Part shown: positions 3,708-48,287 of the stretch, piece after piece | Layout of the letters: each line of letters opens with the position of its first letter | How positions within the stretch are numbered: position 1 is the first letter of the stretch | Assembly: GCA_001805965.1 (NCBI GenBank) | Contig: MHHG01000057.1 | Location: 13,514 to 77,513 of the forward strand | Reading direction: 5' to 3' | Length of the DNA stretch: 64,000 nt | Source of the DNA: Omnitrophica WOR_2 bacterium RIFOXYA2_FULL_38_17 | GTDB lineage: Bacteria > Omnitrophota > Gorgyraeia > Zapsychrales > Zapsychraceae | The notes under the pieces: model-generated | Seen by the model: the letters and a program-made list of their open reading frames with translations, nothing else | Database searches by the model: none | Told to the model about the DNA's origin: nothing | Made by a program: the position numbers and the translations under genes

Positions 3708-4616
3708 CTATTTCTTGACCATTCTGTACTGTTTTGCCAGAATAACAAAGATCTCACGCAAAGTCATGCCCGCAGCAGAAACATCCGAATGATCTGGAAA
3801 TATTTTTTTAATTTTTTCTCTTGTTTGCTTGTCCGAATATTGAGAATCAACAAAATTAATAATTCTGTCCTTACACTGCACTGATAGCCATTCTTCAGGA
3901 TAATTTATTTTTTCACTAATAGCCTCTTTTAAAATGATCTCTATCGTGCGAAACCGGTTTTGCAAGGATTCTGTTTCCTCGACCAATCTTTTTTTACCCA
4001 AATGTATAATGCCAACCCAATCTGCCAATCTTTCAACTTCATGAATATCATGGGATGAAATAAAAATAGTCCACTCCTGGTTCTGGGTGATCTCCAACAA
4101 GCCATCAATGAACTCTTCTCTTACCACCGGATCCAGCCCGCTAAAAGGTTCATCCAGGATTAAAAGCTTAGGCCTGAAGGACAATGAAGAGACTAAAGCT
4201 GTCTTCATTTTCATTCCACGTGAGAATGTTTTAATTTTCTGTTTATATGGTATATCGAACTGCGCAAGAAGATCTTTACAGAATTTATCATCCCAAGTTG
4301 AATACATCGGCTTGCAATAATTTATCAATTGTTCGACCGTCATCCATTCAAGCAATTCCTGATTCTCAGAAACATATCCTATTTGAGAGACCTCTTTAGG
4401 GCTTAGCCTTTTAGAATCAACCCCAAAAACCGATATTATCCCCTTAGTTGGAGAAGTTATATCCATCATCATATTTATAGTTGTTGTTTTCCCTGCCCCA
4501 TTAGGCCCCAGAAACGCAAAAATACTTCCTTGGGGAACTTGAAGGTACAGGCCATCTACCGCAACAAGTCTCCCAAATCTCTTAGTTAAATTTTGAATTT
4601 CTATTGCGTAATTCAT
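3708..4616 (-). CDS. ABC transporter ATP-binding protein
   Basis: Walker A (GPNGAGKTTT), ABC signature (FSRGMKMK) and Walker B (LLILDEP). Confidence 0.85.
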   Translation of the reverse strand: MNYAIEIQNLTKRFGRLVAVDGLYLQVPQGSIFAFLGPNGAGKTTTINMMMDITSPTKGIISVFGVDSKRLSPKEVSQIGYVSENQELLEWMTVEQLINYCKPMYSTWDDKFCKDLLAQFDIPYKQKIKTFSRGMKMKTALVSSLSFRPKLLILDEPFSGLDPVVREEFIDGLLEITQNQEWTIFISSHDIHEVERLADWVGIIHLGKKRLVEETESLQNRFRTIEIILKEAISEKINYPEEWLSVQCKDRIINFVDSQYSDKQTREKIKKIFPDHSDVSAAGMTLREIFVILAKQYRMVKK

Positions 4617-35435: not shown

Positions 35436-37967
35436 CTATTGTTTTGGGAGCAAATTATCTGTATATATCTCGCTTATTCCATAAGAACCCATAAATTGCT
35501 CTGCTTCAATTTCAGTATTTACCGTATGAACATATGTTGGAATATTCATTTCGGCTAATAGCTTAGGTAAGTCCGTTTTAGCTAAGTTCGGGGGCATCGT
35601 TACTGCAAAGGGTCCTTTAAATTCATTTACCCATTTCAATATATCATTTTTTGTACCTTTATATCTGTAAAGCGTCCAGATCACTCTGTTATATCCAAGC
35701 TTCTTGACAACAGAATAATTTTCAGGCTCATAGATCTGAGGAATAACCCTGTTTTCATAATCCTGCATTCTCTCTGATATTAGTTTTAAAGCTTGAATAT
35801 TATCGCCTTTAACATCAGTAATTAAAGTTGCAGATAAATTATTTTCAAGCCATTGTACCAGATCATCAAATGAAACACTCTTAAGATCAGAACTATCATC
35901 AAGCACCTCATTAAATTCTTTTAGTGAAGGCGGCATTTTATTCCCAACTATTTTTGCTTTTTGATAATATCCCTCAAAATCATGTACGCATACCAAATGA
36001 TTATCACTTGTAAATGAAAAATCGATTTCAAAGTACAAAAATCCATCTTTAAAATTTCTATCAATAGCTTTTAAACTATTCGTATATGTTCTATCATCTA
36101 TTGCCCCTCCAGCATGGGCCACACGTTGCACTTTAAAATTAGAGCCTAACTGTAATGCATCGCGTATCTCATGCGCACTTAATTTAATATTTTCCCTTAA
36201 TTTCCATTTTTTTAAATAATTTCCTCTTGTGCCTAATACGGCACAACAGCCTCTATCACCTAAATTATGGTCAATCTTATTCATTTTTGCACAATCATCT
36301 ATTAATAAAAAGTGACTTGTTATCTTGTCGTCTTCTAAAATATCAAACAAAGTTTTATTCCTTGGAAATCTGTTAAAGTTAAATATTAAGGTTGTTTTAA
36401 AGGCATCATCAAACCTAAGCAAAGCAGGGATGTTGAACTTCCTTTCATCTATCTGCACAACTCGCTCATGCAAATCTATTTTTATAAATTCATCGATCCT
36501 TGGAAATTCCCAAAAGGCTAAAGCATCCTTTCTCCATCCTTTTAAATTTTTATGGATCAGTTTTACTTCGTCATTTTTTACCTTTGTGTCCAGCAAATCC
36601 CTTCCCAATCCCACATCTCCTTTAAATCCTATAAAAGGAAGTACTGTCGGGCTAATATCCAAAGTTGACCCCAATCTATTTATCTCCTTTGAGTTCTTTA
36701 ACTGAGGATCAAAGATCATAAAAAGATTCCTTCTTTTCCCTAGATTCAATAGCTCATAAGCAGTATTCCTCATAGCAAGATGATCTGATTGCAAAACAAT
36801 TACTGTTTTTTCTGCATAAGGAGATATAGCAATTTTGTCAATGAATTCGGCAATCAAATATTCAGAACATGAAACCGCATCTAACATTTTGTTTGACCCG
36901 CTTTCAGATATTTTATTCTCACATCTTTGCGAAACATGTCCTACAGGTGCATGTGTACCCAATGTTAATATAAATATCCCGAAAGGCTTGTCTTTTTTTG
37001 ACTGATCAATGAAACTATCATATGCAATATCTAATAAAGAATCATCAAACAAACCCCAATTATTCAAATATGCCTTGTCGGGTAACCTGTCAAGCAATTC
37101 AGCATTACCATATACATCATCAAAATTATGCGTTTTAAAATATTTATCCTTGCCTGCAAACCTGATATCCGCTCCCCCGAAGAAAGAAAGACGGTATCCC
37201 TGATCATGGAGCAAATCTCCCAAGCAGACAGCCTTTTGTAAAAAAGTATCCATTCCTGACATTGCATTACCGTGAGATGTCGATATTAATGGCACCCCGC
37301 ATTGACTTGCGACTATGCCACCCATTGTATTGTGAGCATACTCTACCTGGACAATATTTGAAAAATCAATTCTTTTTGTCTTAATTTGTTTTATATATCT
37401 ATTTAAACCAGGAAAAATTGCCGGATCAAAATAGGTTCTTTCCATGCTTTCTGCATATATAACGATTAAATTCTTTTTCAGCTTGTCATTATGCTCAAGG
37501 TTAGGCTTCAAATAATGCTCACTAAAACTCTCAGAGCTTGTTTTTACAAAATATAGATTTTTTAGATCATGCACTGCAGGGTTCAATAAAATTGAAATAA
37601 ACTGGACAAAATATAGGAAGATCAATAAAGCCTTATTGCTGTTAATTGCGGTATCTTTTTTCTTTATAAAAACAATCAGCACAAATATTCCAATAGCTAT
37701 TATTGCAATAATTGAAAACCCTATGAGATTTGACAAATGTGCGAATCCTGAGCCATTAAAACCATATTTCAAATGAAATATAACAGACTCATCAATACCA
37801 TAGGAAGTAATTTCATCGGAGATAAAATAGAATAAGTTTAATAAAAGAGAGGCTACTGTTAAAAATAAAAGTATTAAAGTGTTAAATAAGCTTACTTTTC
37901 TTCTACGAAGAACAAATCCAAATATCAGAATAAAAACAAGAGATAAGTACAGATGTGGATTATTCAT
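35436..37967 (-). CDS. fusion of membrane-anchored LtaS/OpgB-like sulfatase-family phosphotransferase and C-terminal glycerophosphodiester phosphodiesterase (GDPD) domain
   Basis: N-terminal 5 TM helices, a sulfatase/alkaline-phosphatase-superfamily core, and a C-terminal GDPD signature (VAHAGG…NSLKAI…FEIDFSFTSDNHLVCVHD). Confidence 0.6.
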   Translation of the reverse strand: MNNPHLYLSLVFILIFGFVLRRRKVSLFNTLILLFLTVASLLLNLFYFISDEITSYGIDESVIFHLKYGFNGSGFAHLSNLIGFSIIAIIAIGIFVLIVFIKKKDTAINSNKALLIFLYFVQFISILLNPAVHDLKNLYFVKTSSESFSEHYLKPNLEHNDKLKKNLIVIYAESMERTYFDPAIFPGLNRYIKQIKTKRIDFSNIVQVEYAHNTMGGIVASQCGVPLISTSHGNAMSGMDTFLQKAVCLGDLLHDQGYRLSFFGGADIRFAGKDKYFKTHNFDDVYGNAELLDRLPDKAYLNNWGLFDDSLLDIAYDSFIDQSKKDKPFGIFILTLGTHAPVGHVSQRCENKISESGSNKMLDAVSCSEYLIAEFIDKIAISPYAEKTVIVLQSDHLAMRNTAYELLNLGKRRNLFMIFDPQLKNSKEINRLGSTLDISPTVLPFIGFKGDVGLGRDLLDTKVKNDEVKLIHKNLKGWRKDALAFWEFPRIDEFIKIDLHERVVQIDERKFNIPALLRFDDAFKTTLIFNFNRFPRNKTLFDILEDDKITSHFLLIDDCAKMNKIDHNLGDRGCCAVLGTRGNYLKKWKLRENIKLSAHEIRDALQLGSNFKVQRVAHAGGAIDDRTYTNSLKAIDRNFKDGFLYFEIDFSFTSDNHLVCVHDFEGYYQKAKIVGNKMPPSLKEFNEVLDDSSDLKSVSFDDLVQWLENNLSATLITDVKGDNIQALKLISERMQDYENRVIPQIYEPENYSVVKKLGYNRVIWTLYRYKGTKNDILKWVNEFKGPFAVTMPPNLAKTDLPKLLAEMNIPTYVHTVNTEIEAEQFMGSYGISEIYTDNLLPKQ

Positions 37968-38001: not shown

Positions 38002-38424
38002 TTAGTCATTTTTGTGCTCTTCAACGAACTTCATACATGCCTTTGCTATATCCTTGATGGATATCATTCCTATCAATTTATTATCATCAACTACAGGAAC
38101 ATGCCGGAAATTAAGCCCGCTCATCATATGATATACATCAAAAATTGATGTGCCAGAAGTAACCGTTGAAGGATGTATTGTCATAACCTCTTTCACATGA
38201 ACCTTTTCAAGATTCAAACTTTCAGGGACAACTCGCCTTAGAACATCCCTTTCAGTAAAAATACCGACGATTTCATCCTTATCATTACAAACAGCCATCG
38301 CGCCAATATTCCTGACAAACAGTTCTTTTATAGCCTCCATAATAGTGACCTCTTGCGATATCTTCCCCACCCTTTTTGCCATTATATCGCCAGCTGTTAA
38401 TGCTGATATTTTTTTTGCTAACAT
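38002..38424 (-). CDS. CBS domain-pair protein
   Basis: Two CBS motifs in 140 aa. Confidence 0.8.
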   Translation of the reverse strand: MLAKKISALTAGDIMAKRVGKISQEVTIMEAIKELFVRNIGAMAVCNDKDEIVGIFTERDVLRRVVPESLNLEKVHVKEVMTIHPSTVTSGTSIFDVYHMMSGLNFRHVPVVDDNKLIGMISIKDIAKACMKFVEEHKND

Positions 38425-38585
38425 TATCCCCCCCCTTGATTACATATTACCAAATTTTATTTCAACATAACAAACAATGCTAAATATTTCAGTTTTCTTT
38501 TCTTTGATTTACAATACATCGTAGCTATCACATAAATCAAGGATAATTAGCTTTTTTGTGCCGCAAGGAAACAAAATAATAAATA

Positions 38586-38627
38586 AAAAGGCCGCTCATT
38601 TAAATGACCGGCCTATTTATTCCGTTG
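38586..38627 (-). terminator. intrinsic terminator (GGCCGGUCAUUUAAAUGAGCGGCC + U-run) in the riboswitch-1 leader, just upstream of the CBS gene
   Basis: An 11-bp stem with one mismatch, then UUUUUAUUUAUUAUUUU on the minus strand. Confidence 0.6.
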
Positions 38628-38744
38628 GGGTCTTGCGGTGGAATTCCAGGGACTAACACAAACTTAATAAATAATTTTGCGCTAGTCCCTGGGGCAATAA
38701 CAGTCCGTCGCTCGGGGGCGGTTGGCAACGGTGCTATTGATCAT

Positions 38745-38795
38745 AATAAAAAAGACCTGTCCCTTATAAAAAGAGACAAGTCTTTTTCAGTAAAA
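38745..38795 (-). terminator. intrinsic terminator immediately 3' of riboswitch-1 aptamer (expression platform)
   Basis: GACUUGUCUC…GGGACAGGUC hairpin followed by UUUUUUAUUAU on the minus strand. An A-run on the other side makes it look bidirectional. Confidence 0.55.
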
Positions 38796-38814
38796 ATATC
38801 TACGCCTTTTTTTC

Positions 38815-38900
38815 GATTCGGCAACTGGCTATCCATTTCTTTGGACCCTTTAGCTTTGCGTCCCTGGGTTGCCCCAGGTTTGCCATTTTCGTCGTTATGC
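38815..38900 (-). promoter_or_regulatory. GEMM-I (c-di-GMP class I) riboswitch aptamer, copy 1
   Basis: Minus-strand RNA reads …AAAAUGGCAAACC-UGGGGCAACCCAGG-GACGCAAAGCUAAAGGGUCC…GGAUAGCCAGUUGCCGAA. P1 is GGCAAAC/GUUGCC. P2 is capped by a GCAA (GNRA) tetraloop. The GGGACGCAAAGC core is conserved. Confidence 0.7.
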
Positions 38901-38968
38901 CCCCTACTAGTTAAGTATATAACACATATAGTAAACTAGCAAATAAGGAGCGTTTATTCCTTTATAAA

Positions 38969-39868
38969 CTAACCACAATTGTAACAACTCTGCTCAAATT
39001 TCTCCCCGTTTGCCAGATACACTGTTAATTCCATGAATTCGCATGTTTTACTGTCTGAACATGCTGAACAATCAGTCTTAAGCCCAATATCAGCGCACCT
39101 TGCGCCTCCGGTGCTTGATTCACATCTATAGCATATACCATCAACATCCGGCAGCTCTTCAACCACACAATTGCCATCACATTCTGTACAATCTGAAAAG
39201 TTTAACAGATCAAAAACAGTGCAATCCTCTTGTCCTGCACTAACCAGCTCTTCAATGTCTTCATTAATCATTTTATAATTATCTGATATTTCGATAACAT
39301 CATCACCTTCATAATCCAGCTGATCTTCAGAATAATTCTCAGGCTCAATTTTTGAAATCAGCACAATTGTTTTGTCTTTTGCCTTGTCCTCATTAACATT
39401 TGTTTCAAATGTTAGTTCTTCGGGAATAGATTCAACATCTTTTTCATCAGATGTCTCTGTTACTGCCGGTATTTCTACACAAGAATAGCAGTCCTGACCA
39501 CCAGTCATTTTTTCAATTGCCAAACATTGAGCACCAGGAATAGATGTGCAGAATTCACACATATCCTTTGTAACAAGCCCTATATCCCCGCAAGTTTGGA
39601 TGATTTGCACCTGCACAACTTCTGCAACAGGTTCATTAACTGCTTTCTTAGTAATCTTTGCTTCTACTTGTTCAGGCTTAACTGGCACTTCTTCTTTAAA
39701 CAAATTTTCATATGTCTTTTCCGGCACCATAACATTAGAAACCTCCAGCTGTTTCTTTTGTTCATATTCTTCTATGGTTTTATTTGTCACAACCTTTTTC
39801 GAGCAGCCTACAATCGCTGCAGAGAATATGACCATTCCAACAACTGCAAAATATTTTATTTTATACAT
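38969..39868 (-). CDS. Cys-rich lipoprotein (secreted, many CxxC/CxC pairs)
   Basis: Lipobox AIVGCS. About 24 Cys, clustered in the C-terminal half (CYRCESSTGGARCADIGLKTDCSACSDSKTCEF…CYNCG). Confidence 0.5.
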   Translation of the reverse strand: MYKIKYFAVVGMVIFSAAIVGCSKKVVTNKTIEEYEQKKQLEVSNVMVPEKTYENLFKEEVPVKPEQVEAKITKKAVNEPVAEVVQVQIIQTCGDIGLVTKDMCEFCTSIPGAQCLAIEKMTGGQDCYSCVEIPAVTETSDEKDVESIPEELTFETNVNEDKAKDKTIVLISKIEPENYSEDQLDYEGDDVIEISDNYKMINEDIEELVSAGQEDCTVFDLLNFSDCTECDGNCVVEELPDVDGICYRCESSTGGARCADIGLKTDCSACSDSKTCEFMELTVYLANGEKFEQSCYNCG

Positions 39869-39880
39869 ATAGCACCTCTC

Positions 39881-41959
39881 TTACTTTTTGCTCAATTGAT
39901 CTATATTTTTATCAGCAATCATCTTTGGTACGCTGATAGTTATCGAGATATTGCCATCACTTAAGACTTCTTCAGACTCCACTTTAATAATACTTTCAAC
40001 TCCGTCTATATCAACATTATACAGCTCTGAAACTTCCTGCTGAATGCGTTTTAAGGCCATATTCTGCGTCATTTTTCTTTTTATCTCTTCAGTTGAACTC
40101 TTCAAATTTACGACCGGGAACACCCTGGTCATAAAAACTCTTTCTTCCTTTTCTTTCACATTTGGGTCAAAAGAGAACACTTTAATGCTATCTGCCATAT
40201 AATCCGAAACATAAATTTTACCATCATTACTTTCTATTGATGTTAGATTAGGAAAATAGCTTGGGCCCTTTCCGGCAGAACCAAACTCCATGACATATTT
40301 TCCTTTATCGTCGAGGATGTAAATCTTATTTGTTCCTTTATCTGCAATGTAAAGATATCCATTCTCATCTAGAGTAAAGTCAACCGGCTCTTTAAACTCC
40401 ACCTCATCGAGAACGCTGCCTATTACCCTAAGGACCTTTCCATCTTTATCGAATACCTGTATACGCCTATTCTTGTAATCAAGCACATACAATTGGTCCT
40501 TATCATCAAATTCAATATCTTTTGGCAAAAAGAAAGTACCTGGCTCTGCGCCTGATTCTCCGATAGTTTCTGTTAATCTGCCAAACGAGTTAAGATATAT
40601 TCCTTCCTCACTAAAAACCTGTATTCGATGATTCTTTGTGTCCGATACATAAATATAGCCGTCCTTGCTAACTGCAACACCTTGAGGGCTATTAAACTCA
40701 CTCGTATTATTCCCTTTTTTGCCAAAACTATATTGAGATGTCCCATCTTCATTTAAAAACTGTATACGGTTATTTCCTGTGTCGGCAATGATCATTTTCC
40801 CGTCATTATAAACATATATAGTCTTCGGGCCGTTCATGCCCAAAACATTCTCGTCTGCTTTTGCTATCAGTGATTTATTTTCTCCTTTTAGCAATATTTT
40901 CCCGTTAGTGTCAGAAAGCGAATACAAGCCTTTCTTTTTCACAAATCTTATATCAACTATATTTTCTCCAGCATATATGGATGAGTCATAATCCAAAACA
41001 GGTGTAATATATTGAACAGGATGCAGTGATGTTTTGTTGCTACCGCTAACCTGCATCATCTGCACTCTCTTATTTCTAGCATCCGCTATCAAGATCTTAT
41101 CCTTAGATGCGGCGGTGATATTTTCAGGCAGATCAAATTGGCCACGGCCCTCTCCGCGGGACCCGAATGAGAACAAAGCCTTTCCATCCTGATCTAGCTT
41201 AACGATCTTATTTTTATTGCTCTCTATAATGTAAATATCCCCTCGCTCATCAACATCCAATGCAACAGCATAATATAGAGGATTATATCCATTCTCGACA
41301 TTCGTTATATCTATGGCATCATCTGAACCTTGCGGATATTTCACGATCCTTCCACTTTCATTAAAAAGCAAGTACATGCTTTGTTCTTTATCAAAAACTA
41401 TGTCCTTAGGCGTTTCTTCAATTTGCTTTTCACTTAAAAACGCTCCATGAGGGCTAAACTTCAATATTTTATTAGTTTTATCATCAACGACATATATATA
41501 TCCAAGCATATCAATTGCAACATTTGACGGAGACTTAAATTGCCCGGGAACAGAACCTTCATTTCCAAGCTCATACAGAACTTCTCCGCTGGGCCTGAAA
41601 ACCTGCACTCTGTTATTACCTGTATCAGCTACTACAACATCACCCTCCCTTGTTAATGCTATTGTTTTAGGCTTATACATTTGGCCCAACTGAGACCCTT
41701 TTTCTCCGAAAGCCACTTTAAGAACTCCTTCACTGGTAAAAACAGAGATCTTCGCAGTACTTTCATCTAATATATAAACATCCCCTGAAGATGAAACTGC
41801 AATATCAACCGGCTTCTCTATTCCAGATTTTAACTCTCTTATAAAGCTAACCTTTTCCTCACAATTCCCTTTAGAGCTTACAAGAACAAATGTCACTATT
41901 AGAATAGTTAAAATACCGATTTTTGAGGTTTTGATCTGATTCACATGATACCTTTTCAT
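39881..41959 (-). CDS. secreted NHL-repeat beta-propeller protein (about 12 NHL repeats)
   Basis: Signal peptide. Repeated NHL signatures (GQFKSPSNVAID…YVVD; NNRVQVF; NKRVQMM; NNRIQFL; NHRIQVF; NRRIQVF). Confidence 0.8.
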   Translation of the reverse strand: MKRYHVNQIKTSKIGILTILIVTFVLVSSKGNCEEKVSFIRELKSGIEKPVDIAVSSSGDVYILDESTAKISVFTSEGVLKVAFGEKGSQLGQMYKPKTIALTREGDVVVADTGNNRVQVFRPSGEVLYELGNEGSVPGQFKSPSNVAIDMLGYIYVVDDKTNKILKFSPHGAFLSEKQIEETPKDIVFDKEQSMYLLFNESGRIVKYPQGSDDAIDITNVENGYNPLYYAVALDVDERGDIYIIESNKNKIVKLDQDGKALFSFGSRGEGRGQFDLPENITAASKDKILIADARNKRVQMMQVSGSNKTSLHPVQYITPVLDYDSSIYAGENIVDIRFVKKKGLYSLSDTNGKILLKGENKSLIAKADENVLGMNGPKTIYVYNDGKMIIADTGNNRIQFLNEDGTSQYSFGKKGNNTSEFNSPQGVAVSKDGYIYVSDTKNHRIQVFSEEGIYLNSFGRLTETIGESGAEPGTFFLPKDIEFDDKDQLYVLDYKNRRIQVFDKDGKVLRVIGSVLDEVEFKEPVDFTLDENGYLYIADKGTNKIYILDDKGKYVMEFGSAGKGPSYFPNLTSIESNDGKIYVSDYMADSIKVFSFDPNVKEKEERVFMTRVFPVVNLKSSTEEIKRKMTQNMALKRIQQEVSELYNVDIDGVESIIKVESEEVLSDGNISITISVPKMIADKNIDQLSKK

Positions 41960-41996
41960 TTTTTTCTCCTCTCTACAATTAATCCCATAAAAAAAG

Positions 41997-42035
41997 GCCT
42001 ACCCTTTACAAAAAAGGATAGGCCTTTCTTTTTTA
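41997..42035 (-). terminator. intrinsic terminator between riboswitch-2 aptamer and NHL gene (expression platform)
   Basis: GGCCUAUCC…GGGUAGGCC hairpin followed by UUUUUUUAU, then the RBS GAGGAG and the ATG of the NHL gene. Confidence 0.6.
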
Positions 42036-42059
42036 TTATATGAACTACACCATTATTTC

Positions 42060-42145
42060 TTTTCGGCAACTGGCTATCCATGTCTCAGGACCCTTTAGCT
42101 TTGCGTCCCCGGGTTACCCCGAGTTTGCCTTTATCGTTTATGCCC
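42060..42145 (-). promoter_or_regulatory. GEMM-I (c-di-GMP class I) riboswitch aptamer, copy 2
   Basis: Minus-strand RNA reads …CGAUAAAGGCAAAC-UCGGGGUAACCCGGG-GACGCAAAGCUAAAGGGUCCUGAGACAUGGAUAGCCAGUUGCCGAA. P2 has a GUAA tetraloop. Near-identical to copy 1 in the conserved cores. Confidence 0.75.
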
Positions 42146-42347
42146 CCACTTGCACAAACAAAAAAAAGAGGCTAATTCTTTTTTAAGAATCCGCCCCTCT
42201 TTTTCTCAAGTATAGAACGTAAAAAACAAAAATGCAAATTTCTTTCAAAAATATTCTTAAAACACATAACGTTCATTGAACTTTAAGATAAAGCCCCTTA
42301 TATAAATAAGGGGCCTTATCTTGGATCATGATTGTTATACAAAATTC

Positions 42348-42752
42348 CTACTTAGAAACCCAGCTGCCATCTTCTAATTGTATTTTTTCTCCAGCCTCAG
42401 CATTTTCTCTCTGTGTTTGAGCAAAAACCTTTTCTATAGTTCCCATAGCCTCAGTTAGTCCGTTTTGCACAGCAATGGTCCTATAAATAACCTTCCTATC
42501 AATATTCTCGGCAGTTACTATACTTTTAACTTCTTCTGTTGCCGATAAAGCTTCAACATATCCCTTATTATTCTCTCCTATTTTCCCCTCGCTCTTAAGT
42601 GAGCTAAGAGCATCATAACGGTCGCGCCTGCCTTCTAAGGCAGATTGAACTTCTGGCGTCATTTCTTTTATGCTGTATTTGCTTTGAGCTAGTGCCTGCC
42701 CGACAGACAAGGTGATCAAACATGCTAACACTAAAATAATAATTTTCTTCAT
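42348..42752 (-). CDS. ydbL: YdbL-like periplasmic protein (DUF1318)
   Basis: Signal peptide. Conserved DUF1318-like core (RRDRYDALSSLKSEGKIGENNKGYVE). Third gene of a ydbH-ynbE-ydbL-ordered trio. Confidence 0.55.
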   Translation of the reverse strand: MKKIIILVLACLITLSVGQALAQSKYSIKEMTPEVQSALEGRRDRYDALSSLKSEGKIGENNKGYVEALSATEEVKSIVTAENIDRKVIYRTIAVQNGLTEAMGTIEKVFAQTQRENAEAGEKIQLEDGSWVSK

Positions 42753-42765
42753 CTATATATCCTCC

Positions 42766-42987
42766 TTATTTTTTAACAGGTAAAGCTTCTTTAGGCTTCT
42801 TTCCACTAACATAATCTTCAATGTCATTAGCCGTATTTTGCAAACCCTTAACATCAACAGTTATATGCGCATTGATCGTAATTGGCCTGTTTGGATCACC
42901 TACGGCCTTAACTGTACAACCGGCAAAACAAATAGCCAGCAATACCCACAAGATTCTTTGTTTATAAATATAATACATACGCTTCAT
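42766..42987 (-). CDS. ynbE: YnbE-like small lipoprotein (DUF1375)
   Basis: 73 aa with lipobox FAGC. RPITINAHITVDVKG resembles E. coli YnbE EPITINMNVKIEHEI. Confidence 0.6.
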   Translation of the reverse strand: MKRMYYIYKQRILWVLLAICFAGCTVKAVGDPNRPITINAHITVDVKGLQNTANDIEDYVSGKKPKEALPVKK

Positions 42988-42993
42988 CCTTTC

Positions 42994-43992
42994 TTAAGAC
43001 TTTTTAAAAGAATATTTTAATAAATTTCTTATCCCTCCTTCTATATTAAAATCAACGGTTACATTAACATCCAAATTCATTTCTTTACTCTGCAATAAGA
43101 TATTAGAACTAAGGCTTTGATCATTTTCATTATAAACACGCACTTGGCCTTTATCCACCGCAAACAGCTCCCCTCTTTTTATCGCATTAATCAGCTTGTC
43201 AGTCTTCGCTTGATCCGGTATGTAAGCCATTAATGCTGCCAATAAAACTGCATTCAGCTCAGAACCCTGATTCATGTTAAAATCACACTCAATATTCTCG
43301 ATGCCACCCGCCAGACCATTTAAAAATATATTTCCAGATACTTTTCCTTTTACATTTGAAAGAACAGGAGGATAAATATGTTCAAGCATTGCAGAATTTA
43401 AACCTTCAAGCTGTAAATTTATTTTAAAATCCGGCTTATTCAAATAAACATCTGCATTGCCTTTGACAAAACCATCACAAGTTTCAAGATTTATATCAGA
43501 AAGCTCTATTTTTTCTTGGCTTATATTAATCTTAGACGTTGTGTCCTTTGCTATTACCCCTTGTACATCTATTCTCGATACCTTTAAACTTCCTTTAAAA
43601 TTATAACCTTGTTCTTGTTCTAATGTAATATCTGCATCTTCAATGTTTGACCCTTCCGATTTTAAATCCATGCCATTTAAATCGATTATTGAACCAAAGG
43701 TCTTTTCAGAGAACAATTTATACAAATTCACAACCCTAAATTCGTCTATATCAATACCATACAAAACATTATCGGAAACAAGATCCATTTCTATTTTCTT
43801 GATTGTCATCATGCCCAAAAAGCTGAATTTCTGTTGTGATACTTTGAAACTCTTTAAACTGAACCCAGAATCTGGTTGATTCGCGATAAAAGATATCATT
43901 GCAACAGTTGCTTGAGGCTTATTCAGGCCCCAATAAACTGCACCTGCAAACAATAGCAATATTAATAAAAGCCAAATAAATAATTTTTTCAT
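42994..43992 (-). CDS. short YdbH/AsmA-like periplasmic protein
   Basis: N-terminal TM anchor followed by a beta-rich soluble region. Called from its position upstream of the ynbE/ydbL homologs, as in Enterobacteria. 332 aa against about 880 aa for E. coli YdbH. Confidence 0.4.
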   Translation of the reverse strand: MKKLFIWLLLILLLFAGAVYWGLNKPQATVAMISFIANQPDSGFSLKSFKVSQQKFSFLGMMTIKKIEMDLVSDNVLYGIDIDEFRVVNLYKLFSEKTFGSIIDLNGMDLKSEGSNIEDADITLEQEQGYNFKGSLKVSRIDVQGVIAKDTTSKINISQEKIELSDINLETCDGFVKGNADVYLNKPDFKINLQLEGLNSAMLEHIYPPVLSNVKGKVSGNIFLNGLAGGIENIECDFNMNQGSELNAVLLAALMAYIPDQAKTDKLINAIKRGELFAVDKGQVRVYNENDQSLSSNILLQSKEMNLDVNVTVDFNIEGGIRNLLKYSFKKS

Positions 43993-44046
43993 TATGTGAA
44001 ATTTATATCATTTCAACAAAATTTAATAGCAAGCCTGTCTTAAATT

Positions 44047-44703
44047 CTAAGTTTCTTCAGTATCTATCATCCTCTTCGCTCCAAAAACCAACGTAAGCAA
44101 AAAACAAACAATTCCAAGAATATAAAAGAAACCACTATAACGTTCAATCAATAATCCTTTTTCTGTCTTATAAAAATCAGCTTTTTCCTTTTCATACTGT
44201 TCTAGCTCTTTCATCAGCGGCATTCTTTGCTTCCATAGTTCTTTTCCTTCAACATCATCCACAAATCCACCCCGTTCTGCTGCAACCTTCACTTTTTCCT
44301 CCTCTAGAGAAAGCCTTTCTTTTTCTATGGCCCTGCTCTCAGCCAAATAATCTGCATACTTGCCAACTGGACGCGCATTCCCCCAAAACCCTTTTCTTAT
44401 CACCTCATTAGGACCTATTGATTCATAAAGGCGATCATTATCCTCACTCCTTATCTTAAGGTCTTCCTCTTTCTTTTCAATTGAAAGATACCAAGCTCGG
44501 CCATCTTTATCCTTTCCCAATAAAATATCGTATAACTTCCTGTCGATTTTCTCAATTTTACCTTGTAAAACACCTATATTGCTAAATATGGGTGGCGCTA
44601 AGACTTTTTCTGACAAAAAGAATGATATTGGGCACATCAGCATTATTATAATTTGAAACAAACAACCGATCTTAATTCTTTTTTTATTTTGTTTTTTATT
44701 CAT
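44047..44703 (-). CDS. bitopic membrane protein (N- and C-terminal TM, central coiled coil, PVGKY motif); paralog of 45445..46095
   Basis: Same architecture and shared motifs (RPVGKYADY vs APVGKYKKV; KELWKQRMP vs KALWAQRLP) with the 216-aa protein. Confidence 0.4.
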   Translation of the reverse strand: MNKKQNKKRIKIGCLFQIIIMLMCPISFFLSEKVLAPPIFSNIGVLQGKIEKIDRKLYDILLGKDKDGRAWYLSIEKKEEDLKIRSEDNDRLYESIGPNEVIRKGFWGNARPVGKYADYLAESRAIEKERLSLEEEKVKVAAERGGFVDDVEGKELWKQRMPLMKELEQYEKEKADFYKTEKGLLIERYSGFFYILGIVCFLLTLVFGAKRMIDTEET

Positions 44704-44762
44704 AATTAAATCCAGGTATATAGCCAGTTTTGGCTAATTAAAGAACTAGTTCTTACATAATA

Positions 44763-45350
44763 TTATAAATTACAAAAAGGGCAGCGTGTTCGATATTGTT
44801 CATAGTTCAATCCGCATGAACCACAAGCCTTCATTTCTTCGATCTCTTTTTTTTGACTGCCAAATGATTTTTTACCGTATGCTCCGGGATACGCCCTTTG
44901 AACTTCTACCATACAATCCGGGCACATACCATAACCGCCGGATGGGTCAGTTAACGGTAACCTGACATAACATCTGTCACAAAACATCTTTGCGCATTTA
45001 GGACAAAAATAAAAGTCATTGCCGCCCATAAGCACCAAAGATTCACTAGTTGTAGATTTATTGCATGATTCACAACTTGCAGCCATTATCATCTCAGGAG
45101 TAACTCTTAGAACAGATTTTCTAGCATCATATATTATCTCTACATCATGGCAATATGGGCTGTTCAAATAACCATTAACTTCCTCTTCCATATGGCAAGT
45201 GCCAAAATTACTATAATCCCTAGCCGTTGATGAACTCTTATATCTCACAATAACTACATAGCCATCCCTCTTAGCCATCTCATTAGCGATCTCAGGATCC
45301 GTTTTTCCAGGATATTTCTCTCTTAGGTACTCTATGCCGATAGAGCTCAT
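44763..45350 (-). CDS. cytoplasmic multi-zinc-ribbon protein
   Basis: At least three CxxC…CxxC pairs (CPKCAKMFCDRC; CPDC; CGSCG…CPFC). Confidence 0.45.
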   Translation of the reverse strand: MSSIGIEYLREKYPGKTDPEIANEMAKRDGYVVIVRYKSSSTARDYSNFGTCHMEEEVNGYLNSPYCHDVEIIYDARKSVLRVTPEMIMAASCESCNKSTTSESLVLMGGNDFYFCPKCAKMFCDRCYVRLPLTDPSGGYGMCPDCMVEVQRAYPGAYGKKSFGSQKKEIEEMKACGSCGLNYEQYRTRCPFCNL

Positions 45351-45444
45351 AACAATCCCCTTTCAGCTAAACTTTGACACAAATAAAATACTTTCAAGAT
45401 TTGTTTCTTCAATTTAATATCTTTGGTTTATTTTTCAATAATGA

Positions 45445-46095
45445 TCAGTCCGTTATACCAGCAAAACCGGTCATAGCACCTAAAATACCTAACACTCCTA
45501 AGATAATAAAAAAGCCACTAATAAAATTATTTAATCTTCCCTTTGGGGATTTATTATATTCCTCTATTCGTCCCTCATATTCATCAATATCCTTCACAAA
45601 AGGTAGTCTTTGAGCCCAAAGAGCTTTAACTTCTTCATTGTCAACAAGCGGCCCTCTTTCTTTAACAATGCGATTCTTTTCACTTTGCCATTTAATACGA
45701 TCTTTGGCTATTTGCTCCCTTAATTTAACCACTTTCTTATATTTTCCTACGGGTGCCAATGAACCAGAACCTAATCCTTTTTTAATGATCTCCCCTTCAG
45801 GAATTGAATCGTAAAGAATATCTGCTTGCTGTGTCTTCCAATTCAGATCAAAATCCTCTTTTTTTATCGCTGCATATAGGTCCGCCTTCTCAATATCAAC
45901 TCTCTCAAGAACTTCATATAATTTTTCATATATTTCTGAAATTTTAGAAATTTGAGGGCTAATGTTTCCAAATGAAGGACGCTGAAACTTAGGAAAGATA
46001 TTAAATGATATAATAACTGTAACAATAGAGATTATAATGACTAAACATCCAAACTTTTTATTTTTTTGTCTTTTGTTTTTAATTATTGTTCCCAA
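45445..46095 (-). CDS. bitopic membrane protein, paralog of 44047..44703; first gene downstream of riboswitch-like element 3
   Basis: N-terminal TM, coiled coil, PVGKY motif, C-terminal TM. RBS AAGGAG. Confidence 0.4.
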   Translation of the reverse strand: MGTIIKNKRQKNKKFGCLVIIISIVTVIISFNIFPKFQRPSFGNISPQISKISEIYEKLYEVLERVDIEKADLYAAIKKEDFDLNWKTQQADILYDSIPEGEIIKKGLGSGSLAPVGKYKKVVKLREQIAKDRIKWQSEKNRIVKERGPLVDNEEVKALWAQRLPFVKDIDEYEGRIEEYNKSPKGRLNNFISGFFIILGVLGILGAMTGFAGITD

Positions 46096-46246
46096 AGCAT
46101 TCTCCTTTTATACATAATAATTTCAAAAGCTATAACCCCTTCACTGGTCATTAACAATTGAAATTGAAACTTCAATCAGTATATTCTATATATTCACAAG
46201 TATATTAGCAATCGCTATTTATGTACTTTGGTCAAGATCAAATGGC

Positions 46247-46286
46247 AAAAAAAATACCCCTAGGTCCCTAGAGGTTATTTTTTTTA
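46247..46286 (-). terminator. intrinsic (bidirectional-looking) terminator between element 3 and the 216-aa gene
   Basis: A8, hairpin ACCCCUAGG/CCUAGAGGU, then T8. On the minus strand the hairpin is followed by U8. Confidence 0.5.
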
Positions 46287-46290
46287 AATT

Positions 46291-46472
46291 AAGCCGATAA
46301 AGATGGGATCTGTGTCCCACCGCACTTCGGCAACTCAGCCACCATATCGCCCGTCAACCGCGCTCATTATCTTTATTTGCCCCATAACTTCAGTGGGCCT
46401 TCCCGGTCTTAAACGACTTCAGGTCTGTAGTTTTGTGCCCTCGGGTTTCCCGGAGTTTACCTTTATCGGCTT
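46291..46472 (-). promoter_or_regulatory. divergent GEMM-like riboswitch element, copy 3 (expanded P3, altered core)
   Basis: Enclosed by a 12-bp helix AAGCCGAUAAAG/CUUUAUCGGCUU. It contains CGAUAAAGGUAAAC, a GAAA-capped hairpin, GGGCACAAAAC in place of GGGACGCAAAGC, and the 3' GCUGAGUUGCCGAA. Confidence 0.4.
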
Positions 46473-46656
46473 AGTTCAAATATAACATATAAAACCTCGT
46501 CTTACAAATGAACAACACAAATTTTTTATTAATCTGACCTTTTTTCATGCAAAATTTGAGCCTAAACCACGTCGATAATTGAAATTCTCCTATAAAATTA
46601 TTAAAAATTGATTTAGAATGATAATAAAGAATAATACTTTATAGGAGAATATTAAT

Positions 46657-47856
46657 ATGAGAAGCATTGAGACCTTAGAGCAATTTTATGAACTAATGCA
46701 CGAGACAAAATCAACCAGAAGAGTATTATCCTGCCTTCATTTTAGGAATGAACCTTATTCAGATGCCCATATTGCACCTCTTAAGGAAGCATTAATGTAT
46801 TTAAATAGGATTCCGGAAGCAAATGGTCAAAAATGCCTTAAAATTAATGATAAAAAAACCATCCATCTTGACCTTGCATATGAGATCGGGGAGCTAAAGA
46901 AGGATATTTTTTTTCTTGAAAATAACGAGCCTGATTTCTTTAAAATGCTTTCTAACCTTCATGAAAACTTTAACAAAGAAGTATCAGAAGGCGTTAACAA
47001 ATTAAAAGATATCCATTTCAAGGTATTTATTACAGATCGCGATGGGACTGTTAACAATTATTGCGGACGGTATGCCTCTTCTATCCAGTCCGCATATAAT
47101 GCAGTTTTCCTATCGCGCTTTGCACAATGCTGTGCTGATAATTCAATAATCCTTACATCTGCTCCTCTTGATAACATCGGGCTTGTGGATCTAAGCGTAT
47201 CCCCAAAGAATGCTTTTGTCTTTGCAGGATCAAAAGGCCGTGAATACTTCAATAAAGAAGGCAGAAGGTGCCAATTCCCTATTGCCCAAGAAAAGCAAAA
47301 TATCCTCAATATACTCAATGAAAGATTGGGCAAGCTTGTAAAAGAACCAAAATACCTGCAATTTTTCTTAATAGGCTCAGGACTACAATATAAATTTGGA
47401 CAGACAACCATAACAAGGCAGGATATTACCAAGACAATTCCTGAAGATGAATCCTTAGCCTTTAAAGAAACTATCGAAAACATTATTAAAGAGATCGACC
47501 CTGAAAGTAAATATTTTAGAATTGAAGATACCGGAAAAGACCTTGAACTTATATTGACCATTCAAAGCAGCAATGATTCTAAAGATCTCAAGGACTTTGA
47601 TAAAGGCGATGGGGTCCTTTTCCTTAATAACGATTTAAAATTAGGTATGGAAGCCGGCCCCAATCTTATATGCGGAGACACAAGCTCGGACATACCAATG
47701 ATATCATCTGCAATTGATAAATCCGATGATGTCTATTCGATTTTTGTAACTAAGGATGATGCTTTAAAAGAAAAGGTTAAAAACACCTGCAGGAATTCAA
47801 TAATAGTTTCTGAACCCGATATCTTAGTAACTATACTCAATAATTTAGCGCAATAA
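46657..47856 (+). CDS. HAD-superfamily phosphatase (trehalose-6-phosphate-phosphatase-like) with N-terminal extension
   Basis: HAD motif I FITDRDGTVNNY and motif IV ICGDTSSDIPM. Confidence 0.5.
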   Translation: MRSIETLEQFYELMHETKSTRRVLSCLHFRNEPYSDAHIAPLKEALMYLNRIPEANGQKCLKINDKKTIHLDLAYEIGELKKDIFFLENNEPDFFKMLSNLHENFNKEVSEGVNKLKDIHFKVFITDRDGTVNNYCGRYASSIQSAYNAVFLSRFAQCCADNSIILTSAPLDNIGLVDLSVSPKNAFVFAGSKGREYFNKEGRRCQFPIAQEKQNILNILNERLGKLVKEPKYLQFFLIGSGLQYKFGQTTITRQDITKTIPEDESLAFKETIENIIKEIDPESKYFRIEDTGKDLELILTIQSSNDSKDLKDFDKGDGVLFLNNDLKLGMEAGPNLICGDTSSDIPMISSAIDKSDDVYSIFVTKDDALKEKVKNTCRNSIIVSEPDILVTILNNLAQ

Positions 47857-47900: not shown

Positions 47901-48287
47901 TTAGCTTTCCCCTTCTTTAGCCAACCACATTTCAATCTCTTTATAGAAAGCCGCTCTTTCCTCTTCTCCCTCTATCTCTATCTTCACTGCAGTTTCAAAG
48001 AAATTTGCCAATTTCCTGGAACTCTCAGACCTAACAACTACCCCAACATAACCACTTTCCATATGCATTAAAGGATTACTGACTTTCATCGTCAGGGTTG
48101 CACCCACCGTATACTGTTTTTGAGAATTAAAACATATGCCTGTAACACTGATGTTAGTGGAAGTAGCAACTTCCCATCCATCAACCTCAGGCACTGGGTC
48201 AATCTGCTTAAACCGTATAAGGTGCGGCTTAGTGATCCTTTTTCCTACCCTTTTATGATCGTATTCAGCCATATTCTTTACTCCCAT
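47901..48287 (-). CDS. PilZ-domain protein (putative c-di-GMP receptor)
   Basis: RxxxR (KRVGKR) and N-x-S-x-x-G (NISVTG) motifs about 25 residues apart in a 128-aa protein. Confidence 0.6.
   Translation of the reverse strand: MGVKNMAEYDHKRVGKRITKPHLIRFKQIDPVPEVDGWEVATSTNISVTGICFNSQKQYTVGATLTMKVSNPLMHMESGYVGVVVRSESSRKLANFFETAVKIEIEGEEERAAFYKEIEMWLAKEGES

Follow-up and report, generated by a model that had tools for sequence, protein, structure and literature searches.

Known GEMM-I riboswitches and the Omnitrophota locus

GEMM-I riboswitches, the class I sensors of cyclic di-guanosine monophosphate (c-di-GMP), take their name from the environment, membrane and motility genes with which they are associated (PMC7266159). 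Described members such as Vc2 of Vibrio cholerae, Cd1 of Clostridioides difficile and Bc1 and Bc2 of Bacillus thuringiensis fold into a junction of the helices P1, P2 and P3 with a GNRA-capped P2, and the same layout is found in three leaders of the DNA analyzed here, a stretch of 64,000 nucleotides (nt) from Omnitrophica WOR_2 bacterium RIFOXYA2_FULL_38_17 (assembly GCA_001805965.1, contig MHHG01000057.1, positions 13,514 to 77,513), which is referred to below as the window. These leaders, numbered copies 1 to 3, also have in common with the GEMM-I family (RF01051) the GGCAAAC and GACGCAAAGC cores, the pocket formed by G20, A47 and C92, the location in a 5' untranslated region (UTR) and the intrinsic terminator. 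They differ from the known examples in their host phylum, Omnitrophota, which is known mainly from metagenomes, in the short P3 without the 11-nt receptor that characterizes copies 1 and 2 and their orthologs, and in the 64-nt P3 extension and the unusual predicted 13-bp aptamer-sequestering helix of copy 3.

A survey of c-di-GMP-I riboswitches lists 347 tandem doublets and 12 triplets, as well as a 7-kb region of Desulfobacca acetoxidans in which seven riboswitches form three clusters (PMC9481103), so that several GEMM-I elements within 8 kb represent an established pattern. The window resembles the Desulfobacca region in having several GEMM-I elements within a few kilobases and open reading frames (ORFs) between them, whereas it departs from the tandem arrangements of the survey in that each predicted transcription unit has one aptamer and no second ligand class was detected.

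Three aptamers with a canonical pocket

The whole window was searched with Rfam cmscan against 4227 families at their gathering thresholds (GA), and exactly three matches were returned, all on the minus strand and all in clan CL00126 (GEMM-I). They are listed with their expectation values (E) and, where available, with the score of our own covariance model, R1:

38893-38816, minus strand: copy 1 aptamer; RF03167, 67.6 bits, E 7.8e-14; R1, 98.5 bits
42138-42061, minus strand: copy 2 aptamer; RF03167, 64.8 bits, E 4.9e-13; R1, 103 bits
46471-46326, minus strand: copy 3 aptamer; RF01051, 57.3 bits (GA 35), E 1.4e-8; 64-nt insertion in the P3 loop

An earlier note on this DNA, made from the letters alone, had proposed three GEMM-I leaders on one strand, and the matches, with E from 8e-14 to 1e-8, bear this out: all three fall in the GEMM-I clan, and the c-di-GMP-II family (RF01786) has no match in the window at its gathering score, nor even at E<5. 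The top Rfam score belongs to copy 1. Two more matches of the same clan exceeded their own gathering scores and were suppressed as overlaps; these are presumably RF01051 on copies 1 and 2.

The shared motifs quoted in the earlier note are present, namely CGAUAAAGG-CAAAC, GGGACGCAAAGC and GUUGCCGAA, with GGUAAAC and GGGCACAAAAC as counterparts in copy 3. The P2 caps are of the GNRA type in every copy (GCAA in copy 1, GUAA in copy 2 and GAAA in copy 3). Copies 1 and 2 belong with their orthologs to a short-P3 subtype, while copy 3 is a type-1 GEMM-I element, with the GAAA tetraloop and a receptor-like CCUGAAG/UAUGG motif of that type and a P3 lengthened by the insertion. A hairpin with a U-run follows each aptamer, as had been noticed before (-20.1, -22.1 and -10 kcal/mol for copies 1 to 3). 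The further claim that a ribosome-binding site and gene start come right after each terminator holds for copy 2, where 35 nt separate the terminator from the ATG at 41959, and loosely for copy 3, whose TTG start at 46095 is ~145 nt away. For copy 1 it does not apply in this simple form, as ~320 nt, a second terminator-like hairpin among them, lie ahead of the start codon at 38424.

The three-way junction of P1, P2 and P3 is backed by covariation. When 15 related aptamers, taken from the window and orthologous loci, were aligned, 95.4% of the cells are paired and 11 of the 20 pairs show both-sided changes; none of 500 shuffles matched the observed values, and controls with slid pairings dropped to 20-42%. 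A chance resemblance to the family in place of functional RNAs has a negligible probability, given E of 1e-8 to 1e-13 when the whole window is searched against all the families, the covariation over 15 homologs, and the position kept upstream of orthologous genes in lineages with proteins only 44% identical. On such sequence evidence, the Rfam matches and the covariation have already effectively refuted it.

G20, A47 and C92 are important for the ligand pocket (PMC11218506). G20 and A47 (Vc2 numbering) are found in 15 of 15 aptamers and C92 in 14 aligned rows; the row of copy 3 is cut off in our own model, and its C92 was taken from the Rfam alignment (GUUGCCGAA). Vc2 was indexed such that G20 immediately precedes the GC closing P2 and that the first base past the closing GC is A47. 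Judged by these nucleotides, all three copies are canonical c-di-GMP-I (GEMM-I) aptamers, and with this pocket in each of them the ligand is predicted to be c-di-GMP.

A ligand other than c-di-GMP would be expected for copies 1 and 2 if they belonged to the c-di-GMP-I-GGC class, reportedly an orphan variant from Weinberg et al. 2017, or to the class that senses the cyclic AMP-GMP dinucleotide (c-AMP-GMP). The GGC model, RF03167, is indeed the top model for both (67.6 and 64.8 bits against a GA of 59; copy 3 reaches 51 bits, below the GA) and likewise for most orthologous aptamers. The RF03167 consensus, GACGCGAAgC, has G at position 47, which we take to be the middle letter of 'GGC' and the position that defines the variant, whereas all aptamers here have A (GACGCAAAGC; in copy 3, GGCACAAAAC); membership of copies 1 and 2 in the GGC variant was rejected on this ground. 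A20 is typical of the c-AMP-GMP (GEMM-Ib) variants; it is seen in none of the 15 aptamers, all of which carry G20, so that the c-AMP-GMP assignment fails as well. The RF03167 score is high because the short P3 with its ~11-nt loop and the P1 layout are common to the variant and to copies 1 and 2, and not because of the pocket. Sensing of another ligand is very unlikely, and the GGC-variant match is best read, from the aligned nucleotides, as a labeling artefact.

Copy 2 and the NHL-propeller gene

Copy 2 is the clearest case, and the only copy with a conserved and interpretable switching design. Its leader and the genes that follow are:

42209..42238, minus strand: promoter-like TTTGCA-18-TATACT in the copy 2 leader (consensus scan; identical in the sister species, locus L167)
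42155..42200, minus strand: hairpin and U-run between the promoter-like site and the aptamer (sequence reading; also in L167)
41993..42027, minus strand: copy 2 terminator, hairpin and U-run, -22.1 kcal/mol; 5' arm GGCCUAUCC
39881..41959, minus strand: NHL-repeat beta-propeller, 692 amino acids (aa); Pfam NHL, E 3.5e-47; N-terminal signal or anchor
38969..39868, minus strand: Cys-rich acidic lipoprotein, 299 aa; lipobox ...AAIVGC, read from the sequence

Ten NHL-propeller orthologs with 44-82% amino acid identity were compared, and a GEMM-I aptamer of the same subtype lies directly upstream, on the same strand, in eight of the ten. The sister species (L167), L172, L174 and L176 have single aptamers, L173 has a single one with an insertion of ~40 nt, and tandem doublets precede the gene in L168, L170 and L177 (three of the eight); L171 gave only a partial GEMM-I match and L169 none. 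Two of the ten are named Omnitrophota. The literature search returned nothing relevant on a link between GEMM elements and NHL repeats, or on riboswitches in Omnitrophota.

Both members of each doublet (L168 4720-4939, L170 4716-4939, L177 1076-1359) are of the same subtype and have their own terminator, which is the known 'digital' arrangement, here in uncultured lineages. In L173 (4773-4892) and L177 (1221-1359), hairpin insertions of 40-69 nt share one unusual site, between the post-P2 GGGAC and the GC closing the outer P2 pair, and such an insertion lowers the Rfam score below the gathering threshold (29.6 bits in L173).

The surroundings of the orthologs are informative as well. Genes for MshE/type II secretion system (T2SS) E, T2SS-F, pilin and PilM/N come after the propeller in L174 and L176, and in L177 a secretin gene precedes it. 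On gene order, this conserved association links the NHL propeller with the machinery of type IV pili or type II secretion. The statement in the earlier note that none of the downstream genes are classical GEMM targets is softened by the orthologs, which lie beside secretin, MshE/T2SS-E, T2SS-F and pilin genes and are therefore nearer to classical targets than the window alone suggests. The domain of the 299-aa lipoprotein recurs directly downstream of the propeller in L167, L168, L170 and L171 (tblastn). In L170 (7118-12121) and L171 (7184-12151), giant genes of more than 2000 aa, which run beyond the locus end, lie downstream of the propeller, and they contain a region resembling the Cys-rich lipoprotein.

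The design of the copy 2 platform is also conserved. The 5' arm of its terminator, GGCCUAUCC, is complementary to the 3' strand of P3, GGAUAGCC, with a duplex energy of -11.7 kcal/mol. Among the orthologs the terminator arm retains (G)CCUAUYC, complementary to the conserved P3 strand GGAUAGCC, while the linkers and terminator loops diverge. When transcripts of 12 switches from outside the window were folded after truncation just before the 3' arm of the terminator, the mean arm-aptamer pairing probability was 0.45-0.86 in 11 of the 12. In most of these folds the arm takes the P3 3' strand as its partner; the arms of L168A and L172rev pair with other parts of the aptamer, and in L176 the partner in the minimum free energy (MFE) structure is not the P3 strand. 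A compensatory change is seen in L177B, where P3 reads GGGACAGCC and the arm GGUCUGUCUC, with a duplex of -16.2 kcal/mol that is equaled by 1.7% of shuffled arms. For most switches the duplex energies are individually non-significant against shuffled arms, and the argument therefore relies on the conservation, the truncated folds and the covariation in L177B.

According to this design, without ligand the P3 strand GGAUAGCC would pair with the terminator arm GGCCUAUCC to form an antiterminator and allow read-through, whereas c-di-GMP would lock the aptamer and leave the arm free, so that the terminator forms and transcription stops. The complementarity of P3 and the terminator arm, combined with a ligand-locked aptamer, amounts to an OFF-switch geometry, and if the element switches at all, copy 2 is fairly likely to be an OFF switch according to the folding models.

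Two further observations concern the copy 2 region and its orthologs. The hairpin at 42155-42200 lies inside the predicted 5' UTR, as does its sister-species equivalent (L167 145-195), and it may also serve to terminate the upstream operon; the sister species lacks the first terminator after the YdbL gene. Furthermore, L172 has a second GEMM-I element of the RF01051 type (4176-4279, minus strand), which is oriented divergently from the NHL-linked one, toward a pilin-like operon (N_methyl, DUF4900); here the terminator arm has the P2 3' strand, and not P3, as its pairing partner (-15.6 kcal/mol, p 0.007).

Copy 3, its competing helix and the envelope genes

Copy 3 lies farthest upstream on the minus strand, ahead of a run of six genes that is read here as a putative operon:

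46479..46507, minus strand: promoter-like TTGTAA-17-TATATT (with TG) upstream of copy 3 (consensus scan)
46291..46303, minus strand: UCUUUAUCGGCUU, 3' partner of the 13-bp helix; pairs with the aptamer 5' strand AAGCCGAUAAAGG (46472-46460)
46247..46275, minus strand: copy 3 terminator, ACCUCUAGG/CCUAGGGGU and U8; hairpin 46275-46256, -10 kcal/mol
42348..46095, minus strand: six-gene run after copy 3, with products of 216, 218, 195, 332, 73 and 134 aa

The 13-bp helix covers P1, the junction J1/2 and G20 on the 5' strand of the aptamer. Its duplex energy is -23.7 kcal/mol (z-score -5.5), nothing similar was found in the other eleven of the 12 switches compared, and in the folding models it is mutually exclusive with the ligand-bound fold. 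The helix could therefore sequester the 5' strand and exclude ligand binding. Coupling of the helix to the copy 3 terminator was considered and rejected, as constrained folding shows no link between them. An antiterminator of the copy 2 kind, with the terminator arm complementary to the aptamer, is likewise not seen in copy 3. The 216-aa protein encoded by the first gene is an orphan, its homolog search having returned only itself, and for this reason there is no cross-species comparison of the copy 3 leader.

The 216-aa and 218-aa membrane proteins are paralogs (39% identity, E 5e-39), just as the earlier note had read them, and the 195-aa product is a Cys-rich protein. The note had also seen a ydbH/ynbE/ydbL-like trio in the last three genes. 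The 73-aa product is a YnbE-like lipoprotein (YnbE homology, E 1e-6) and the 134-aa product is a YdbL/DUF1318 homolog (E 1e-12; Pfam DUF1318, E 2e-19). The 332-aa protein is membrane-anchored and belongs to a family of ~335 aa with 244 representatives, of which 9 of 34 members match Pfam AsmA (best E 6.7e-12); by these profile matches the family is AsmA-like. In Escherichia coli, the ydbH-ynbE-ydbL operon is annotated as putative intermembrane phospholipid transport (NC_000913.3), and it has the same order of a membrane-anchored AsmA-like protein, a small lipoprotein and a DUF1318 protein. The first members are different, since YdbH has 879 aa and the 332-aa protein comes from a separate family without direct similarity to it. 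An assignment as YdbH ortholog was rejected (BLASTP E ~1, hhalign probability 0.2%), so that the trio stands as an AsmA-like protein with YnbE and YdbL homologs, its first member not being a YdbH ortholog. An AlphaFold single-sequence model of the 332-aa protein was unusable (predicted local distance difference test score, pLDDT, of 38). We know of no riboswitch control of the E. coli operon.

Taken over the leaders, the genes downstream mostly encode envelope or secreted proteins, as the earlier note had it: the signal-anchored NHL propeller, the Cys-rich lipoprotein, the membrane proteins and the AsmA-like, YnbE and YdbL homologs. To our knowledge, neither NHL propellers nor AsmA-like/YnbE/YdbL genes have been described as GEMM-I targets.

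Copy 1, a structured spacer and the CBS and LtaS-GDPD genes

Copy 1 is followed by an arrangement in which the gene start is remote from the aptamer:

38914..38942, minus strand: promoter-like TTGCTA-17-TATACT upstream of copy 1 (consensus scan, pattern match only)
38750..38786, minus strand: copy 1 terminator T1, 16-bp stem and U-run, -20.1 kcal/mol; 5' arm GACUUGUCUC
38578..38742, minus strand: structured non-coding spacer of 165 nt, with two long hairpins and a terminator-like hairpin, T2 (~38582-38622)
38002..38424, minus strand: CBS-pair protein, 140 aa; Pfam CBS, E 6e-26
35436..37967, minus strand: LtaS-type sulfatase/GDPD fusion, 843 aa; Pfam Sulfatase, E 1.3e-26, and GDPD, E 6e-6

The spacer is unusually stable on the minus strand (38742-38578), with an MFE of -68.2 kcal/mol and a z-score of -9.2 that none of 200 shuffles reached, against only -57.1 kcal/mol and a z-score of -4.0 on the plus strand. 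Its GC content is ~50%, compared with 36.7% for the window. No Rfam family matches it at E<5 and blastn-short detected no homolog of it in any fetched locus; it contains a 20-aa ORF without a ribosome-binding site.

The earlier note had placed the CBS and LtaS-GDPD genes under the control of copy 1, and this part of its reading is unproven. The spacer and its terminator intervene, and the arm GACUUGUCUC is mismatched to its own aptamer: against the P3 3' strand of copy 1 the duplex is only -3.6 kcal/mol, compared with -11.7 kcal/mol in copy 2, and the arm suits a GGGACAGCC-type aptamer better (-9.5 kcal/mol). The comparative data point the same way. Among 160 loci of LtaS-GDPD orthologs (2.4 Mb, many phyla), searched by regular expression and with our own covariance model, no GEMM-I element was found and none had a CBS gene upstream; weak covariance matches of 14-18 bits occurred, and that in L129 was not confirmed by Rfam.

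One explanation is that copy 1 is a recent duplicate whose platform is uncoupled, so that the aptamer would bind its ligand while the CBS and LtaS-GDPD genes would use their own promoter past the second terminator. The aptamer and the first ~25 nt of the linker make copy 1 a close paralog of copy 2, the arm fits poorly, and a promoter-like site (38483-38454, consensus scan) follows T2 ahead of the CBS gene; the lack of GEMM-I elements and upstream CBS genes at the ortholog loci fits as well. In the sister species no copy 1 aptamer is found in the 91 nt after the homolog of the 299-aa lipoprotein, where the contig ends, which is therefore weak evidence against its presence there, the contig being too short to rule out a copy further downstream. 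There is also a precedent in Bc1, a GEMM-I riboswitch with a long dual-terminator platform that fails to respond to ligand (PMC11218506), which shows that this kind of layout can mask a response. Both Bc1 and copy 1 have two terminator-like hairpins and a long platform, with ~390 nt from aptamer to start codon in copy 1, but the terminators of Bc1 are 28 bp apart (PMC11218506), whereas ~130 nt, including two additional and very stable hairpins, separate those of copy 1. On the other side, the aptamer of copy 1 is fully intact, with the best Rfam score of the three, and a bipartite pairing of the arm with the aptamer segments AGGGACG and GGUC exists (-9.4 kcal/mol, p ~0.08). Uncoupling is a serious possibility, although we lean against it. 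Under the preferred reading, in which copy 1 is an intact aptamer with a mismatched arm, it may terminate constitutively, use another pairing or control only the structured RNA segment.

A more elaborate alternative would treat copy 1 and the spacer as a composite RNA, in which an aptamer without the usual antiterminator gates or precedes the 165-nt RNA, and would give copy 3 an output other than its terminator, in that its helix would bury the 5' end of the transcript and the ligand pocket and could thereby affect RNA stability or processing; we consider it quite improbable. The 165-nt RNA could in that case be a c-di-GMP-controlled small RNA, or a second, undescribed sensor domain in series with GEMM-I.

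Several side observations concern these genes. The full-length LtaS-GDPD fusion is scattered over distant taxa at 40-48% identity, namely Omnitrophota, Desulfobacterota, Planctomycetia, several phyla of the candidate phyla radiation (CPR) and DPANN archaea, and this scattered distribution suggests that it may have spread horizontally. The poly-G of the CBS ribosome-binding site (38428-38435) reads G8 in the window and two public contigs and G9 in two contigs of the same species, a difference that may reflect a polymorphism in length or an artefact of sequencing. The CBS protein and its neighbors are identical on Rifle-aquifer metagenome contigs and in the metagenome-assembled genomes GCA_001806045.1 and GCA_001805995.1. 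Public annotations include a gene for a 111-aa ORF at 38604-38939 (plus strand), which is probably a spurious gene call because it runs antisense over the copy 1 aptamer, terminator and spacer.

Switching direction and the weight of the evidence

The explanation that we favor, and hold with good confidence, is that the window has three GEMM-I aptamers of which copy 2 would act as an OFF switch, copy 1 has a terminator arm mismatched to its aptamer, and copy 3 has a predicted helix that could compete with ligand binding. Several results count against this explanation, beginning with the top Rfam model for copies 1 and 2, which is the orphan GGC variant RF03167 and not RF01051, and the poor fit of the copy 1 arm. 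For the window copy 2 itself, the arm-aptamer pairing probability in the truncated fold is only 0.11, and its -11.7 kcal/mol duplex is non-significant against shuffled arms (p ~0.07). The full-length MFE structure contains the terminator in every case, and any switching must therefore be kinetic. In thermodynamic models the copy 3 terminator forms with a probability of 0.94 with or without the 13-bp helix. In addition, promoter-like sites past the terminators are possible in such AT-rich DNA, where 64 sites turned up in the scan and 52.6 would be expected, and a motif scan of the window found no GGDEF or EAL gene.

The opposite direction, in which c-di-GMP prevents termination and induces the envelope genes, has to be considered, as both ON and OFF GEMM-I riboswitches are known and Bc2 is described as ON (PMC11218506). 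The weak antiterminator of copy 2 in silico would fit such ON switches, and ligand binding at copy 3 would release UCUUUAUCGGCUU, which would in principle be free for another partner. However, the terminators lie 20-35 nt past the aptamers without overlapping the P1 3' strand, and the linkers contain no stretch that is conserved or that matches the terminator arms by complementarity. The sole conserved complementarity is that of the aptamer P3 with the terminator 5' arm, an OFF geometry that covaries in L177B, and ON switching is unlikely.

Neighboring genes

Two features lie upstream of and outside the riboswitch cluster:

46657-47856, plus strand: trehalose-6-phosphate-phosphatase-like gene (T6PP_N and T6PP_C, E 8e-88), diverging from the copy 3 promoter region
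47901..48287, minus strand: 128-aa PilZ-motif protein, RVGKR and NISVTG

The PilZ-motif gene, beyond the phosphatase-like gene, closes a run that includes trpF. The earlier note had pointed to a PilZ-domain protein near the leaders, and the 128-aa product has both motifs with which PilZ domains bind c-di-GMP, RxxxR and D/NxSxxG, but its match to Pfam PilZ (PF07238; E 0.004, 17.9 bits) is below the cut-off of 22.5. The gene follows the trpF-like gene and is linked to the riboswitches by proximity alone, and proximity only was likewise the source of the 'compact regulon' into which the note had gathered the locus.

Significance

New here are Omnitrophota as the host phylum, the propeller as a conserved target, the AsmA-like/YnbE/YdbL genes as a candidate target and the oddities of copies 1 and 3, while the understanding of GEMM-I riboswitches is unchanged by these findings. 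What remains most curious is the structured RNA that follows copy 1, together with the helix by which copy 3 could sequester its aptamer. Aptamers with a canonical pocket are also captured by the Rfam 'GGC variant' model, which is a warning for automated annotation, where mislabeling is likely. For the biology of the Omnitrophota, a textbook riboswitch class is extended to this phylum, and the NHL propeller, an orphan surface protein, is tied to predicted c-di-GMP signaling as a target conserved across lineages. Finally, the leader of copy 3 suggests a c-di-GMP input into the AsmA-like/YnbE/YdbL envelope module.

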